Made by a program: the position numbers and the translations under genes. The notes under the pieces are model-generated. The model had not been told where the DNA came from and did no database searches. It worked only from the letters and a program-made list of their open reading frames with translations. Positions 3,034 through 59,045 of a DNA stretch of 64,000 bases are shown piece after piece (position 1 is the stretch's first letter; every line of letters starts with the position of its first letter). Source of the stretch: Candidatus Falkowbacteria bacterium. GTDB lineage: Bacteria > Patescibacteriota > Patescibacteriia > UBA11705 > JABHMO01. The DNA lies in NCBI GenBank assembly GCA_018674305.1, contig JABHAL010000004.1, positions 256,446 to 320,445 of the forward strand, read 5' to 3'.

Positions 3034-5547
3034 ATGCCAAAGAAAAAACAAACTGAAAAAAAGCCCAACGAAGAGCAGGCTCCAATCAAGGCAGCAGTTC
3101 AGGATATTTCTATAATTGATGAAATGCAAAGTTCATACATTGATTATGCTATGAGTGTTATAGTTTCTCGAGCGTTGCCAGATGTCCGAGATGGGCTAAA
3201 GCCTGTTCATCGTCGAATTCTGTATGCTATGTGGAGCGTTGGACTTCGTTCTAGTTCTAAATTTCGTAAATCGGCTACGGTAGTCGGTGAGGTTTTAGGT
3301 AAATATCATCCGCATGGTGATCAAGCTGTTTATGATTCAATGGCTAGGATGGCTCAGGACTTTAACATGCGCTACATGTTGGTTAATGGTCAGGGAAACT
3401 TTGGTTCAATGGATGGTGATAGGCCAGCGGCGATGCGTTATACCGAAGCAAAATTAAGAGGCATTTCTGAAGAATTATTATTTGATTTAGAAAAAGATAC
3501 TGTTGATTTTAATCCCAACTATGACGGATCCCACAAAGAGCCCAGTGTTTTGCCAGCCAAGTTGCCACATTTACTTTTGAATGGTGGTGTGGGTATTGCA
3601 GTTGGTATGGCAACCAAGATACCTCCCCATAACCTGATGGAAGTTTGTGATGCGGTGTGTCATATGATTGATAATCCCGATTGTAATTCAGAAGATTTAA
3701 TGGAGCATGTCAAAGGCCCAGATTTCCCAACTGGCGGTATTATTTATGATCAAACTGAAATAAAAAGAGCTTACACTACGGGAAAAGGTAAGATTGTTAT
3801 GCGTGGTAAAACTGAGATTGTTGAAAGCAAGGCCGGTCAATTCAAAATAATTATTTCGGAAATTCCATATCAATTAAACAAAGCCAGTCTATTGGAAAAG
3901 ATTGCAGAGTTTGTAAAAACAAAAAGATTAGAAGGTATTAGGGATGTGAGAGATGAGTCTAATAAGGATGGTGTACGAATTGTGGTTGAGCTTAAGCGAG
4001 ATGCTTTCCCTAAAAAAGTTTTGAATCGGTTATTTAAATTAACCCAACTGCAATCAAATTTCGATGTTAATATGTTGGCTTTGACGGGTGATTATCAGCC
4101 AAAGGTTATGAACTTGTTTGATATTCTTAATTATTATCTTATTCATCGTCAGGAAGTTGTTGTTCGGCGAACAAAATATGAATTAAAAAAAGCAGAAGAT
4201 CGTGCACATATTTTGGAAGGTTTAAGCAAGGCCATTGATAAGATCGATGCAGTGATAAAAATCATTAGAAAATCAAAAGACAAGGAATTAGCAAAGCAAA
4301 ATTTAATTAAGCAATTTAAATTTACTGATATTCAAGCAGTTGCTATTTTGGAAATGCGATTACAGAACTTGGCGAATTTGGAGCGTTTAAAAATAGAAAA
4401 CGAATTAAAAGAAAAGAAAAAAATTATTGCCGCATTAAAAAAATTACTATCTTCTAAAAAAGGTATTTTGGGTGTAATTAAAGATGAGTTAACTGAAATT
4501 AAAGAAAAATATGGTGATGAACGAAAGACTAAGATCATTAAGTCGGCAGTAGGTGAGTTTTCTCAGGAAGACTTGGTCCCGAATGAGCCAGCCTTGGTAA
4601 TGGTCACAACGGATGGATATATTAAACGAATGCCACTAGAGACTTTCAAAACTCAACATCGAGGAGGTAAAGGGGTTATCGGTCTAACAACCAAGGAGGA
4701 AGATGTTGTTGATTTATTATTTACTACTTTGACACATAACGATTTGTTGTTTTTCACTTCAATGGGCAGAGTGTTTCAGCTAAAAGCTTATGATTTGCCA
4801 ATTGGTTCAAGAACCTCAAAGGGACAGGCCTTGGTCAATTTCCTTCAGCTCGGACCTGATGAAAAAGTAACAGAAATATTACCAATAAAAGATCAGACCG
4901 ATGCTAAGTTTTTATTCATGGTTACTGAGAAGGGAACGATTAAGAAAACTGCGATTGAAGATTTTGCTAATGTCCGTCGTTCTGGCTTGATTGCTATTCG
5001 TCTAAAGCCTGGGGACCGTTTACGTTGGGTTAAACCAACTAATGGAAAAAAGCAAATGATGTTAATTTCTGCTCGTGGTCAAGCAATCAGGTTTGCGGAA
5101 AAAGACGTACGAAGCATGGGGCGTACTGCGGCAGGTGTGCGTGGTATTAGACTGAAAGCCGATGATCAATTAGTAGGTGTCGGAATGATTGAACCGGACA
5201 AAGAAAAAGTTTTGCAAGTTTTGACCTTAGCAGAAAACGGCTTTGGTAAGCGTTCAAACCTATCAAACTACAAAGTCCAAAATCGTGGTGGTGGTGGTAT
5301 CAGAACCTTGAAGGTTTCCAGCAAAACCGGAAAAGTTGTGAAAGGGATGATTATTGATTCTGAGCAAAATAAAGATAATGATATTATGGTCATTTCTAGT
5401 AAAGGTCAAGTAATAAGAATGCCTTTCAAGACGATCAGCGAACTTGGGCGTGATACTCAGGGAGTTCGATTGATGCGCTTTAAAGAATCCAAGGATAAGG
5501 TAGTTACATTTTCAAAAATTGTAACTGACGTGAAAGATCGAGGATAA
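3034..5547 (+). CDS. gyrA: DNA gyrase subunit A
   Basis: N-terminal [27 protein letters not shown] motif and C-terminal beta-pinwheel repeats; 837 aa. Confidence 0.95.
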
Positions 5548-47109: not shown

Positions 47110-47235
47110 TCGGGGTAGCTCCTTTGGCTATTTTCATATTTTTAGTTATTGTTCCTGAATTTATTCGGGGTAGCTCCTTTGGCGATTTTCATATCCTCAG
47201 TTATTATCCCTGAATTCATTCAGGGTACCTCCTTT
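47075..47235. repeat. Three tandem ~55-bp REP-like units, each holding a small hairpin (cctgaat-tc-attcRgg) plus the SD and first ~13 codons of the GT4 gene. The third unit supplies the C-terminus of the transposase-like ORF
   Basis: Direct alignment of units at 47075-47129, 47130-47184 and 47185-47235. Confidence 0.7.
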
Positions 47236-47769
47236 ACACAAAGTTTCAAGAAACATGTTTTCATCTTCATGTTTTTTTATTTTCAAAATAGACATTATTC
47301 TTAGTTCCAGTTCTTCTTGGTCAAATTCTTTACACAGTTCCTGAAAATTACAATATTTATATTTTTTCAATTCATTAAATGAGTGGATAATACCATGGCG
47401 GAGAGGGTTTCCTAGGATATATGCTGAAATGTTAGCATAAGCAAGTTCATCAAATATTGCCCAAGCGTAATATTTTTTCCAAAGTTGTCCTTCTCTGTTA
47501 GTTTGAATGTTAATTAATCGTGCTGATGCTCCCGCTAGATCTTTAAGGAATTTTTTACGTTGTTTTTGTTCTTCACAGTCAATAATTAAATGTAAATGGT
47601 TATTTAGTATGGCGAAATATTCAATATTAACATTATTATTTTTAGCTGCTTTATTAAATTGGTTTAAAATAATTTCTTTCAAAGGGTCGTCGAATTTTAC
47701 AATAATCTGATCAGTGAGTGAATAGGTGATGAAATATTTGCGTTCGGGGTAGAATTGGTATTTGAGCAT
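47197..47769 (-). mobile_element. HuH-Y1 (IS200/IS605-TnpA or RAYT-like) transposase, 190 aa
   Basis: HuH motif NHLHLII and catalytic Tyr region AYILGNP; flanked on both sides by REP-like hairpin repeats. Confidence 0.6.
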
Positions 47770-47774
47770 ATTAA

Positions 47775-47870
47775 TTATTTGGTAGGCCCAAATGAATTTG
47801 GGGGTAATTGTTTAGGATAATCCCAAATTGTTCTGAATTGTACATGCGACGGTCTATAGCGATTTTTACA
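47775..47870 (-). pseudogene. Decayed duplicate of the GT4 N-terminus (..VKIAIDRRMYNSEQFGII..)
   Basis: Translation of the minus strand resembles MIIAIDARMYGASQFSGIGTY of the intact GT4; preceded by two more REP-like units at 47862-47950. Confidence 0.35.
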
Positions 47871-47950
47871 TTCTTAGCAATTATACCTGAATTCATTCGG
47901 GACATTATTTTCAGTTATTATCCCTGAATTTATTCGGGGTACCTCCTTCA
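47862..47950. repeat. Two further REP-like units homologous to 47075-47235
   Basis: Sequence similarity (attttcagttattatccctgaatttattcggggtacctcc). Confidence 0.55.
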
Positions 47951-52812: not shown

Positions 52813-53955
52813 TTAAGATTTAGCGGAGAACTTTTTTATTTCCTGCAAATAATCTTGAGCAGTTTGATACCAGTGAATATCCTTTGATTTTTGTAAACCT
52901 GCGGCTATATATTGTTTGGCTAGCTTTGAATTAGTCATTTGCTTCATGGCACTGTAGAGATCGTTTGTGTCAGTTGGATTAATTAAAAGGGCAGCTTGTT
53001 GGCAAATTTCTGACATGGATGAATTGTTTGAGGTAATGACGGGACAGCCACAGGCCATTGCTTCAATTGGGGGAAATCCAAACCCCTCATAAAATGAAGG
53101 ATACACAAACATAGAAGCTAAATTGTAAAAATATCGTTTCTCAGAATCTTTGATGTATTTAGTGAAGATAATATTTTTTGACTGTTGTTTGATGATTTTT
53201 TTATAATGCCAACCTGGTTTACCGGCGATTACTAAACTATATTCAGGATGTTCCTGATGAAATAAGTTAAAAGCCTTAATTAGTGAAGTGAGGTTTTTTC
53301 TTGGCTCAATCGTGCCGAGAAACAAAATGAATTTCTCTGGTAGTTTGTATTTATTTTTTATTTTTTTAAATTTAGGATCTTTCGGATTTAAAATTCTATA
53401 ATTCTGAGAAATGCCGGAGTATATAGTTTGAATTTTCTTTGGAGCAATTTTGTAAATGTCGATTAAATCTTGCTTGGTGTTTTTTGAAACAGAAATAACT
53501 TGATCTGCTTGCTGAAAAAGTTTATTAGGATTTACAAACCAATGCCATAGTTTACGTTTGAAAGATAGAAATTCAGGAAAAATTTCAAAACTGAGATCAT
53601 GAGCGGTGATAATGTAGGGACAGTTTGTTTTGAAAAATGAAATATTAGGAAATAAGAATAAATCGATTTTCGAAGATTTGTATTTGTGAATAATTATTTG
53701 ATCAAGTTTTGGGTGAGAAAATATCTTTAACGTTAAGTTGAGTACCTTGTTGGACATTTTGAACTCACAATAATGTACATTGTCTTTGGGAAACTTAGGA
53801 ATATATTTGTTAACCTTTTGTCTGGAATTATAAAAAAGATAGTACTGGTTGGTACTATCTACTTCAAATAAATGTTTTAGGAGATAAAAAGTGTATTCGC
53901 CAACGCCAGTCAGTTCGCGTTCCATTAAGCAACGGATGTCGATACCTATATTCAT
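52813..53955 (-). CDS. Glycosyltransferase family 4
   Basis: EGFGFPPIEAMACGCPVITSNNSSMSE. Confidence 0.85.
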   Translation of the reverse strand: MNIGIDIRCLMERELTGVGEYTFYLLKHLFEVDSTNQYYLFYNSRQKVNKYIPKFPKDNVHYCEFKMSNKVLNLTLKIFSHPKLDQIIIHKYKSSKIDLFLFPNISFFKTNCPYIITAHDLSFEIFPEFLSFKRKLWHWFVNPNKLFQQADQVISVSKNTKQDLIDIYKIAPKKIQTIYSGISQNYRILNPKDPKFKKIKNKYKLPEKFILFLGTIEPRKNLTSLIKAFNLFHQEHPEYSLVIAGKPGWHYKKIIKQQSKNIIFTKYIKDSEKRYFYNLASMFVYPSFYEGFGFPPIEAMACGCPVITSNNSSMSEICQQAALLINPTDTNDLYSAMKQMTNSKLAKQYIAAGLQKSKDIHWYQTAQDYLQEIKKFSAKS

Positions 53956-56955: not shown

Positions 56956-57412
56956 GCCATAAACAAGCGAGTAAGCCGGATTCTGTTTTAGCTGTCATCT
57001 ATCTGGGCCAAAGATTACTCTTTGGCTCACGCGGGCTACCAAAACTTGCCCTTGCACTCAGGTAAGGATTTAGCCGTTTCACCCTTGATGTTTCCATCAA
57101 GACTAACCCCGAAGGGTTCCGGGAAATCACTTTCCACGGCGTCCCGATGTTGCTTTCGCAATTCGGGACACCTTGACTCTTGCGAGTCTCGGCGTCTCTG
57201 CTCGCACCTCTATCTCACGATCGACAGGAATTACCTGTTACCCGTGTCAATTAAATAACCGAGTGTCCGGACTTTCCTCCCTTCTTCGCTCTTCACTCCG
57301 TTCAGAGCTACGTAGGGCAAGCCAGTCTCATAAGTTGATTAGGACTAGCCTGCCCTTCGAAGCTCTCGCGAAGCAGAGGGCGAAGAAGGGCGACAGTTCT
57401 GCTTGTTTATGG
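56956..57412 (-). ncRNA. rnpB: RNase P RNA (bacterial type). The 13-bp P1 helix GCCAUAAACAAGC / GCUUGUUUAUGGC defines the ends within about 10 nt
   Basis: Minus-strand P4 signature GGGAGGAAAGUCCGGAC (rc of 57265-57281), 3' P4 strand ACAGAAUCCGGCUUAC (rc of ~56970-56985) and AAGGGUGAAACGG. GC-rich block with no credible ORF; a TTGACA-N17-TATATT promoter starts transcription at the P1 5' end. Confidence 0.75.
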
Positions 57413-57565: not shown

Positions 57566-57985
57566 ATGACTCAGGTTAAAATCACCAGAGGCCCATTATT
57601 TCCCGAAGATTCGTTCGGCATGGTTGTCAATTGGTATAGATTAAAAATCAACCGAGTGGAAGAAATTTGTCGGGGTACTGTTTATGATCAATCATTTGCT
57701 AAAATCATAGAACATTTGAAATATTTGCATGATAATCCACCTGCAAGAGCAACTTATTTTGCAGGGATGACAGCTTCAGGTTTGATTTTTCAGGATGTTC
57801 AAATTGACTGGAAAGCTAGCCGTATTGTTAAACGTAACGGTCAGGATGTCGCTTTGCTAAAGACTAAGGGTTTGACTGATCGTATTCTTGTTTGGGCTGG
57901 GAAAAGCGTATTAGCACAAGGTTTTGAGATTACAGAAAGTGAATTTAGAATAGTTGTTTGTTTAATTGTTGCAGTGGAGGTTTAA
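57566..57985 (+). CDS. Hypothetical protein
   Basis: SD gacaggaggcagttATG; stop overlaps the next start (TAAATG). Confidence 0.4.
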   Translation: MTQVKITRGPLFPEDSFGMVVNWYRLKINRVEEICRGTVYDQSFAKIIEHLKYLHDNPPARATYFAGMTASGLIFQDVQIDWKASRIVKRNGQDVALLKTKGLTDRILVWAGKSVLAQGFEITESEFRIVVCLIVAVEV

Positions 57986-58402
57986 ATGCCAAGAGAAAGT
58001 TCTATTACTCAGGAAATGACGAGATTTTTGAAACAGGCAGGTTTGCCAATTTCAATTCAAGAACTGTTTAACACGGTTTTGGCTTACAAAGGTACACCGA
58101 ATAAAGATGGTGATGATGAGGAAGTTGAATATGGATTTGCAATTGTAAAAGACTTTGAGTTCAAGACACAAGATGGTGTTTTGCAAATCATCTTGTGGTG
58201 TTGTGATCCAGATGAAATGGCGTCTGGAGTTGAGCCAGATGAAGACGGAGAAAGAACCTATACTGAATTTGTTTACAATTATGAATTTGATGATGAAGGG
58301 ACGTGGTATTGTGAAGAAGAAAATTGGGATGTGTTGCTGGAAGTAACTCGCTTGTTTGATCCTGCCAAAAGAAAACGGGCAAGGCCCGAGCCGGCGTCTT
58401 AA
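57986..58402 (+). CDS. Acidic hypothetical protein, translationally coupled to the 57566 gene
   Basis: ORF; terminator at 58414-58446. Confidence 0.4.
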   Translation: MPRESSITQEMTRFLKQAGLPISIQELFNTVLAYKGTPNKDGDDEEVEYGFAIVKDFEFKTQDGVLQIILWCCDPDEMASGVEPDEDGERTYTEFVYNYEFDDEGTWYCEEENWDVLLEVTRLFDPAKRKRARPEPAS

Positions 58403-58413
58403 TAAACCAATCA

Positions 58414-58446
58414 AAAAAGTCCGATCAGAGATCGGACTTTTTTTAA
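58414..58446. terminator. Terminator (aagtccgatc-agag-atcggactt + T-run)
   Basis: Perfect stem. Confidence 0.7.
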
Positions 58447-58937
58447 TTATTCCGGTCATGATGCCAACGTTCAGGATTTGTTCGGATATACCAACGGGAA
58501 TGGTCTAATTCGGATTGATTACGCAAAACGCGGTCGTAATATGATTTTTGCCAACGGAATTCCGATAAACCATTTTGATGAATAAATTTTGATGATGTGG
58601 TTTTGAATGCGCCGATGATTCCGGGGATGGGTTTTGTTTTTCGTGGTAGGGACCGGTCGCGACCGGTCCCTACATCATCGACGATACGAATAATCACATG
58701 AACGTGATTCGGCATAATAATCCATTCATCCAAATTTACATGTTCGTATTGTTTTGTTAACCAAAATAATTGTTGACGTGTAATTACCCCCGATTCATTC
58801 AACACCATTTTATCATTTACGACATTCCCAAACCATTCAATCCGATTATTTGTGCAAATTGTTAAATAATAAAAACCCGCCAATGAATAGTCAATGAATT
58901 TTGCCCGGTTTAATTTTCGATCTGGTCCTGTATACAT
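58443..58937 (-). mobile_element. Second HuH-Y1 (IS200/RAYT-like) transposase, 164 aa, with a perfect 28-bp GC-rich palindrome (58646-58673) embedded in-frame
   Basis: HuH NHVHVII and Tyr motif WYIRTNP; the palindrome gtagggaccggtcgcgaccggtccctac encodes ..VGTGRDRSLP.. Confidence 0.6.
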
Positions 58938-59007
58938 ATATTGCTATTGTTACAGGTATAATATTAATCCCCAAGTAAAATGTTGTCCACGTTCGTCAAG
59001 AGTTTGA

Positions 59008-59045
59008 AAAACAAAAAATCCTCCTTGGTGTTTGGAGGATTTTCT
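59008..59045 (-). terminator. Terminator for trpS (atcctcc-ttggtgtttgg-aggat + T-run on the minus strand)
   Basis: Read directly. Confidence 0.55.

Follow-up and report, generated by a model that had tools for sequence, protein, structure and literature searches.

The locus analyzed here raises the question of why an intact transposase-like gene of Candidatus Falkowbacteria carries a perfect palindrome inside its own coding sequence: as a repeat that the gene tolerates, as an element under selection, as a by-product of the encoded peptide, or as an artefact. Coordinates refer to the window, the whole 64-kb stretch of DNA that was analyzed.

A REP in frame inside a tnpA-REP gene was described in 2018 for TnpA-Y1 subclass 2.4 (Quentin, Siguier, Chandler & Fichant, BMC Genomics 19:475; PMC6006769). 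Its authors call the in-gene REP the "remarkable and unique feature" of this subclass, which corresponds to RAYT group 4 of Bertels et al. 2017 (PMC6006769). Members carry the signatures NH[IFV]H, WQ, and YIxNNP (Table 1, PMC6006769), are hosted by Cyanobacteria, Bacteroidetes, and various phyla, and possess "double-foot" REPs with 5' GT[AG]G and 3' C[TC]AC ends (PMC6006769). The in-gene REPs are additional to flanking REPs, which lie within ~1 kb in the large majority of members (PMC6006769). The insertions preserve the frame and generally fall between HuH and Y, in a variable beta3/alpha-C region that a structural model places at the periphery of the protein, where an insertion is probably harmless to activity (PMC6006769). 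GTAG-tagged REPs, REPs within ORFs, and REP-flanked RAYT genes were reported by Di Nocera, De Gregorio & Rocco 2013 (BMC Genomics 14:522); the word "transposase" is absent from the host ORFs listed there. There is no mention of an in-gene REP in Nunvar 2010, Bertels 2017, Messing 2012, or Corneloup 2021. As for activity, it is known from other RAYTs that TnpA-REP binds single-stranded DNA at the REP hairpin and the GTAG on its 5' side, cutting at a CT or CA close by (PMC3479197, PMC8266576).

A reading of this stretch from its letters alone, the sequence-only reading, had considered a REP-like element within its cognate transposase gene unusual; it is instead a described hallmark of subclass 2.4 (PMC6006769). 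The phenomenon is already published, and the Falkowbacteria gene is a further example of it in a CPR genome.

A perfect palindrome within an open reading frame

The palindrome, GTAGGGACCGGTCGCGACCGGTCCCTAC, consists of two 14-bp arms with zero spacer. It lies in frame within the minus-strand ORF at 58443-58937, where it codes for V89-G-T-G-R-D-R-S-L97 and the first base of P98 (Table 1). A scan of the sequence bore out the claim of the sequence-only reading that a perfect 28-bp palindrome lies at 58646-58673 inside a HuH-Y1 ORF. Its HuH (NHVH) and Tyr (WYIRTNP) motifs, at H78-V-H80 and Y150, and its in-frame peptide VGTGRDRSLP (V89-P98) are likewise present as described, while its estimate of about 60% GC for the palindrome was too low: the measured value is 71%, against 36% in the 64-kb window. 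No other perfect palindrome longer than 14 bp occurs in the 64 kb scanned, and none of 100 shuffles reproduced one of 28 bp. Folding predictions give the 28-mer a hairpin of -17.6 kcal/mol (z -5.4) for DNA and of -25.5 kcal/mol (z -4.3) for RNA.

Table 1. Features at the RAYT-like locus (window coordinates)
Feature	Position	Strand	Remarks
RAYT / TnpA-REP-like Y1 HUH gene	58443..58937	-	164 aa, intact; from ORF list, profiles, and fold
HUH motif, H78-V79-H80 in NHVH	58698..58706	-	read from sequence
Putative catalytic Tyr150 in Y-I-R-T-N-P	58488..58490	-	read from sequence
Double-foot REP (probable)	58646..58673	.	perfect 28-bp palindrome; GTAG foot on both strands
Bidirectional intrinsic-terminator-like hairpin	58413..58443	.	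overlaps RAYT stop codon (58443-58445) at 58443
Promoter-like -35/-10 (TGGACA, 17-nt spacer, TAATAT)	58961..58989	-	consensus match only; 24 nt upstream of start codon

A second copy of the 28-mer was absent from the 64-kb window with up to 3 mismatches allowed. Searching with the 14-nt half-site, again with up to 3 mismatches, returned a single further match (53614-53627, 3 mismatches), which looks like chance; the possibility of degenerate REP relics near the RAYT gene was set aside, as the half-site search gave just this chance-like match. Palindromes with arms of at least 6 bp between 58300 and 59100 comprise the terminator-like hairpin, the REP, and one short AT-rich stem. Two other identities for the 28-mer were considered and rejected. 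A known RNA family or a terminator finds no support in the Rfam search, which gave no match over the palindrome, or in its surroundings, where no T-run follows the stem on either strand, and the element is absent from the terminator scan. A head-to-head dimer of two mini-REPs is suggested by the presence of GACCGGTC twice within the 28-mer; this was taken for a coincidence, the substructure being missing in other members of the family.

Fold and motifs of the encoded protein

Profile searches relate the protein to the Y1 transposases at differing strengths. Its score against Pfam Y1_Tnp (25.5 bits) just passes the cut-off of 23, that against the RAYT equivalog of NCBIfam, REP_Tyr_transpos (NF047646), is 46.6 bits (E 3e-12) and does not reach the cut-off of 80, and NCBIfam transpos_IS200 gave no match. 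The identical protein is found on 28 contigs from several sources, one of which names it "transposase [Candidatus Falkowbacteria bacterium]."

An AF2 model built with 80 homologs has a pLDDT of 89 and a pTM of 0.83. Its top Foldseek match is 4ER8, E. coli TnpA-REP bound to a REP hairpin (TM 0.62, rmsd 2.8), followed by IS608 TnpA and ISDra2 TnpA, and the Tyr motif W-Y150-IRTNP aligns with the Y-motif region of 4ER8. In the 80-sequence alignment, H78 and H80 are invariant, as are the N-terminal Thr26 and W129 of the W129-Q130 pair ahead of the Y motif, while Y150, I151, N154, and P155 are each conserved in at least 90% of the sequences. Fold and motifs place the protein of ORF 58443-58937 with the REP-associated tyrosine transposases (RAYTs).

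Judging from sequence patterns, the gene looks like its own transcription unit, running from the promoter-like site (58989-58961) to the terminator-like hairpin (58443-58413), which has no sequence kinship with the REP. No hairpin other than this terminator-like stem adjoins the gene; the nearest one upstream is the trpS terminator at about 59016-59045, ~80 nt from the RAYT gene. No second copy of this gene occurs in the window. The window does hold one other HUH ORF, on the minus strand at 47197-47769, a RAYT with N-P-L-R-H-G after its Tyr.

The loop that takes the insertion

The AF2 model places the HUH strand at residues 78-85, followed by a loop at 86-103 and a helix at 104-121, and the loop block 91-100 has a mean pLDDT of 59. 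Given this layout, the palindrome is predicted to code for part of a poorly ordered beta3/alpha-C loop. Alignment to 4ER8 opens a gap of ~15 residues opposite the palindrome-coded peptide, and the loop is ~10 aa shorter in palindrome-free homologs (L008, L028, L035, L059). Relative to E. coli TnpA-REP and these homologs, about 10-15 residues are extra, precisely at the palindrome-coded peptide.

Palindromes in homologous genes

A protein search returned 95 relatives, including proteins from CPR, Bacteroidota, Omnitrophota, and Calditrichia. We examined 80 homologous genomic loci from many phyla at the DNA level, with hosts that include Cyanobacteria, Bacteroidota, Chlorobiaceae, and Chloroflexota. 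A perfect in-gene palindrome, defined in the homologs by an arm of at least 9 bp and a loop of at most 6 nt, is present in 54 of the 80 loci, and most of the remaining loci have shorter hairpins; some intact homologs have no palindrome. The in-gene palindromes concentrate in one region of the gene, 59 of 66 mapping to query residues 80-109, with a minor second site in the beta-hairpin turn at residues 40-45. Their density is accordingly uneven, at 3.24 per kb in loop DNA versus 0.147 per kb in the remainder of the loci. Among the homologs, the offset of the palindrome from HUH ranges from 13 to 146 nt and its copy number from 0 to 4.

The palindromes are diverse in sequence (for example, GTAGGGGCGGTTCGCGAACCGCCCCTAC, GTAGAGATAATTCATGAATTATCTCTAC, and GTAGGGGCACGGCATGCCGTGCCCCTAC), and nearly all of those in homologs start with GTAG(G/A)G and end with C(C/T)CTAC. 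In a 24-sequence alignment, stem positions 5-12 consist exclusively of Watson-Crick pairs, and each of these positions except position 6 is occupied by two to four pair types. Across 14 pairs, 81 of the 336 sequence-by-pair cells differ from the commonest pair on both sides, compared with 19 in shuffles. The percentage of paired cells is partly circular because the palindromes were picked for being palindromic, and the sequence diversity is the informative part of this comparison. Six single mismatches were seen (three A-C, one C-C, one C-T, and one A-G). We had considered G-U pairs as a means of telling RNA-level from DNA-level maintenance, and this test proved unusable because the palindromes were selected as Watson-Crick; the mismatches show no G-U preference in the sense strand.

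The palindromes are read in two frames, as GTA|GGG in 22 cases and as xGT|AGG in 13, and none uses the frame in which the TAG of the foot would be read as a codon. An identical palindrome is read as CRGTACRAPT in one locus (L029) and as VGARHAVPLP in another (L080). Peptides like VGNGRDRSLQ do recur at one alignment position among the homologs. Since diverse, compensated palindromes are read in two frames, it is the DNA that is conserved and not the peptide.

The closest ortholog with DNA available, a Kuenenbacteria protein of 65% amino acid identity (P0002), has a perfect 48-bp palindrome, CCCCACGCCTGTAAGGAACGGTCGCGACCGTTCCTTACAGGCGTGGGG, at the same place in its gene. Compared with the window's 28-mer, two of its pairs are changed in compensated fashion, and it has a symmetric extension of 10 bp. 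No further copy of the palindrome lies near this ortholog within the 6.5 kb examined.

Flanking and dispersed copies

In many loci, further copies of the same palindrome flank the gene, ahead of the start codon by ~17-35 nt, no more than about 40 nt from the stop codon, or at both places; such loci are a classical REP-RAYT-REP unit plus a third, in-gene copy. REPs lie within ~1 kb of the gene in 29 of 45 homologous loci, and six loci (L018, L039, L046, L050, L067, L073) contain arrays or several dispersed copies. The copies within one locus often differ from one another by compensated pairs (L004, L018, L025, L050), which indicates that each copy is individually kept symmetric. Palindrome divergence follows protein divergence (Mantel r 0.29, a value that none of 2000 permutations reached). 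In roughly a quarter to a third of the loci, the window included, the DNA examined contains no copy besides the in-gene one, a share slightly overstated in that the gene span of the count took in the immediate flanks.

A metagenome scan for GTAGGGANNGGTCGCGACCNNTCCCTAC recovered at least 127 sites in at least 120 contigs. Among the matches listed, the NN pairs are complementary in 119; 19 sites fall inside RAYT-like ORFs, another 4 no farther than 300 nt from such an ORF, and the remaining 104, mostly intergenic, have no RAYT nearby. Sites of this family also occur in frame inside the genes for EF-G, RF-1, RNase HII, LigA (the NAD-dependent DNA ligase), an NRPS, and a glycosyltransferase. One unrelated contig (L096) has the window's exact 28-mer, located between two genes that converge on it. 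On account of the metagenome, in-gene, and L096 copies, the window's palindrome is a member of a dispersed GTAG-footed REP family.

These results bear on the proposal, made from the sequence alone, that a REP-like element had been inserted in frame into its cognate transposase gene. The proposal gains support from the extra residues, about 10-15 over E. coli TnpA-REP and the palindrome-free homologs at exactly the palindrome-coded peptide, and from the other copies. Beyond the window, the family occurs at more than 100 other metagenome sites and the exact 28-mer at one; the 64-kb window contains no other copy. In homologous loci, moreover, the in-gene palindrome matches the palindromes that flank the gene, which favors the reading as a REP.

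Relationship to known systems

When set against the published signatures of subclass 2.4, the protein resembles its members in the HuH signature (N77-H78-V79-H80, of the NHVH form), in the WQ signature (W129-Q130), and in lacking a C-terminal extension. Like them, it has a variable beta3/alpha-C insertion (loop 86-103) with a double-foot REP in frame between HuH and Y, the palindrome falling at codons 89-98, and the ends of the palindrome, GTAG...CTAC, conform to the double-foot pattern, as do those of most homologs. The Y motif, Y150-I-R-T-N-P, agrees with the class 2 motif Y---NP and differs from YIxNNP at one position (T for N). Other differences from the subclass are the host, here a CPR bacterium, Candidatus Falkowbacteria, and not a member of the Cyanobacteria or Bacteroidetes; the HuH-to-Y distance, 70 aa here versus a subclass median of 88; and the flanking REPs, of which there is none within 1 kb of the gene, nor any other copy in the 64 kb. 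Based on the published signatures and the REP layout, with flanking REPs absent and the Y motif one position off, the gene would quite probably be assigned to subclass 2.4, taken together with the view of its palindrome as a double-foot REP that is a tolerated passenger.

The E. coli TnpA-REP (RAYT group 2, YafM, 4ER8) shares the fold (TM 0.62) and, as far as the motifs indicate, the HUH/Tyr chemistry. E. coli REP/BIME elements share with the palindrome a hairpin with a 5' GTAG foot, which the E. coli enzyme reads base-specifically (PMC3479197, PMC8266576). By analogy, the palindrome is the type of hairpin that serves enzymes of this class as a single-stranded DNA target for binding and cleavage. 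In contrast to the Falkowbacteria locus, the post-HUH loop of the E. coli protein is ~15 residues shorter and without a REP, the stem of E. coli REPs is bulged and has a single foot, and the E. coli protein has an inhibitory C-terminal tail that is absent here. The RAYT features of Nunvar et al. 2010, namely HUH, Tyr, and an N-terminal Thr, are all present (H78, H80, Y150, T26; PMC2817692), while the protein has N-P-E-R-W-H in place of their motif NP(L/V)(R/K)xG, and the flanking REPs of a RAYT in the sense of Nunvar are missing at 58443-58937. Because this motif is absent and the score stays below the NCBIfam cut-off, we regard the protein as a RAYT broadly defined (class 2), outside the E. 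coli-type group.

GTAG-tagged REP families and Rickettsia palindromic elements are, like the element studied here, short GC-rich palindromes with a GTAG terminus. As with the GTAG-tagged REPs, the family is dispersed and mostly intergenic, between convergent or co-directional genes, and occasionally in frame in housekeeping genes. The foot and the palindrome are both present in the window, and the dispersal is seen in metagenomes, with one copy in 64 kb of this genome. Unlike the GTAG-tagged REPs, the element has full symmetry, each strand bearing a foot, and its host gene is the presumed cognate transposase.

The TnpA proteins of the IS200/IS605 group (IS608, ISDra2) have the same Y1 HUH fold, and a DNA hairpin substrate with a 4-nt guide 5' of the stem would, by analogy, be a further point in common. 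Unlike the present case, IS200/IS605 hairpins lie at the element ends, outside tnpA, and the enzymes are obligate dimers of multicopy insertion sequences. The gene studied here is single in the window, has no terminal hairpin pair, and has no match to transpos_IS200; the subterminal LE/RE hairpins and multiple copies that define IS200/IS605 elements are not found in the window.

Origin and retention of the in-gene palindrome

The account that we favor is that the ORF is probably a subclass 2.4 RAYT whose palindrome is a double-foot REP kept as a tolerated passenger. REP copies would build up beside and inside the gene of the enzyme that mobilizes them. A functional protein would survive only insertions into the permissive loop or, more rarely, into the 40-45 turn, and only two frames would be possible, those that avoid the TAG of GTAG. 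Once inserted, a REP copy may stay on as a tolerated passenger. Its perfect symmetry would be preserved through the DNA, whether hairpin-templated correction restores it or selection favors copies that are still RAYT substrates; selection on the peptide would not be what keeps the symmetry. Template switching, with the hairpin as template, is a well-known mutational route by which near-palindromes are corrected. As such correction would suffice, the compensated changes and the symmetric extension are explicable without selection.

Several observations can also be read as signs that the in-gene REP is a selected cis-acting element, either an autoregulatory target or a protected seed copy, which we consider unlikely. 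As its second option, the sequence-only reading had named a hairpin in cis that the enzyme might recognize within its own gene. As an autoregulatory target, it would confront the enzyme, an RNase, or the ribosome with a stable hairpin in the RAYT gene or its mRNA and so limit RAYT expression; as a seed, it would ensure that enzyme and substrate are co-inherited and that the REP population could be re-founded after transfer or loss. Such an element would agree with the occurrence of a palindrome in the same loop in the majority of homologs, which span many phyla (54 of 80 have a perfect one with arms of 9 bp or more), with the quarter to a third of loci, roughly, in whose examined DNA the in-gene copy stands alone, and with the compensated differences among copies of one locus. 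The Kuenenbacteria palindrome, too, stayed perfect and changed solely by compensated substitutions and a symmetric extension. Moreover, the loop lies immediately before alpha-C, whose invariant Lys112 may, on visual inspection of the 4ER8 alignment, be the counterpart of K82, a residue that contacts the hairpin in the E. coli enzyme. The palindrome in the loop of most homologs and the compensated changes in Kuenenbacteria fit active retention at least as well as passive carriage. On the other hand, the spread of offsets and copy numbers and the use of both open frames resemble repeated gain, loss, and indel turnover and not one conserved regulatory layout, and the palindrome is missing from some intact homologs. 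The same REP family is found in frame in unrelated housekeeping genes, so survival in frame needs no RAYT-specific function; template-switch correction could preserve the symmetry without selection; and the stem is followed by no U-tract and matches no known RNA family. Weighing these points, we hold carriage as a tolerated passenger to be likely and a function for the in-gene copy to be improbable. A more far-reaching version is that in CPR-like lineages the in-frame REP is the sole surviving copy and is under selection, which would turn the RAYT gene into a self-contained replicator with its substrate, an autoregulatory target or seed, built into the coding sequence and with symmetry maintained copy by copy; this is decidedly doubtful.

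Far less probable still is a role for VGxGRDRSL as a conserved functional motif of the protein, with the palindrome as a by-product of its codons. The recurrence of the peptide at the same alignment position in many homologs would be expected of such a motif, but reading the same palindrome in two frames yields unrelated peptides (CRGTACRAPT and VGARHAVPLP), which already contradicts it and on which ground we rejected it. The palindromes also vary widely in sequence while keeping their symmetry, the same DNA occurs between genes and in unrelated genes, and the peptide lies in a loop modeled with low confidence. Nor is there much reason to see in the palindrome an assembly or sequencing artefact (a fold-back chimera) or a chance terminator inside the ORF, an idea that we find scarcely credible. 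Library artefacts can yield perfect GC-rich palindromes, and stable stems do resemble terminators. Yet the identical protein appears on 28 contigs from several sources, orthologs and distant homologs have equivalent palindromes, and the ORF remains open across the palindrome; a terminator is further opposed by the lack of a T-run on either strand and by the element's absence from the terminator scan.

Implications for REP-RAYT systems and annotation

The locus extends the "REP inside its own RAYT gene" arrangement of subclass 2.4 to a reduced CPR genome. The Falkowbacteria locus is peculiar in missing the usual flanking REPs. Across 80 genome loci and at least 120 metagenome contigs, the in-gene copy is conserved as DNA, through two reading frames, compensated changes, and one symmetric extension, and it can be the sole copy in the DNA examined. 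If the in-gene copy were functional, it would offer a handle on the long-term cohesion of REP-RAYT pairs. For now, a tolerated passenger is the simplest reading, and the significance of the arrangement is modest. Annotators who meet peptides such as VGxGRDRSL or xRDRSRPVPT in proteins that are conserved elsewhere along their length (EF-G, RF-1, LigA, RNase HII) should take them for REP insertions and not for real motifs.

In-frame palindromes in RAYT homologs and unrelated genes

The REP family of the window (GTAG...CTAC palindromes) also occurs on metagenome contigs in frame within genes unrelated to the RAYT, encoding EF-G, RF-1, RNase HII, NAD-dependent DNA ligase, an NRPS, and a GT4 glycosyltransferase, contributing extra peptides, for example VGTGRDLSL, VGNGRDRSLQ, or RERSRPFPT. 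In RAYT homologs, a minor second site of in-frame palindrome insertion corresponds to query residues 40 to 45, the turn that joins strands 37-40 and 43-46. At the main site, the variable loop between the HUH strand and alpha-C, four homologous loci (L016, L021, L041, and L053) carry two to four tandem copies or half copies, which are translated as repetitive peptides. Locus L046 holds an array of about eight related palindromes (GTAGGGCCATGCCATGGCATGGCCCTAC and variants, many spaced about 77 bp apart) at 4193-4873, just upstream of a RAYT whose loop contains only a weak palindrome with 6-bp arms. In the palindrome of the Kuenenbacteria ortholog, the 28-bp core has undergone two compensated changes and is extended symmetrically by 10 bp at either end, which suggests that the palindrome grew by templated copying.

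One published “TIRYT”, rca 2775 (PMC3733652, Additional file 5), begins in the alignment with ...RLGRPQGVAPTITEPGSGRPQGVAQTI..., followed by LKTMTTKLYADGVRQSGWPPF. This sequence is similar to the repeats that the palindromes encode in homologs L040, L058, and L074 and to the alpha-C region of these proteins. Entry rca 2775 may be a mis-started member of TnpA-Y1 subclass 2.4.

Other features of the window

The other HUH/Tyr gene of the window matches Pfam Y1_Tnp (41 bits) and NCBIfam REP_Tyr_transpos (73 bits versus a cut-off of 80), contains the classical NPLRHG motif, and has related small palindromes on both sides. Together, the gene and its non-GTAG palindromes look like a second, different REP-RAYT unit. 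The full-length RNase P RNA match (85.9 bits; E = 3e-26) falls below the Rfam gathering score of 100 and probably represents an RNase P RNA of divergent CPR type. Two neighboring ORFs, neither with a Pfam match, directly adjoin the RAYT as a pair and share its bidirectional terminator-like hairpin.

Positions of palindromes and other features (window coordinates unless an L number names a homologous locus or contig)
Feature	Position	Strand	Remark
In-frame REP sites, six unrelated genes	L083 3987, L123 12235, L185 6030, L190 7231, L098 11045, L102 2812		
Palindromes at beta-hairpin turn	L041 5107, L064 2859, L068 5073		Proteins with insertion: P0055, P0066, P0070
Perfect 48-bp palindrome	L201 3270-3317		Kuenenbacteria ortholog
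Other HUH/Tyr ORF	47197-47769	-	190 aa
Small palindrome CCCTGAATTCATTCAGGG	47208-47225		3' end of other HUH/Tyr ORF
Small palindrome CCCAAATGAATTTGGG	47787-47802		Upstream of same ORF
Small palindrome CCCTGAATTTATTCGGGG	47922-47939		Upstream of same ORF
RNase P RNA class A (bacterial) match	56956-57333	-	Rfam, model positions 1-367
ORF	57566-57985	+	139 aa
ORF	57986-58402	+	138 aa
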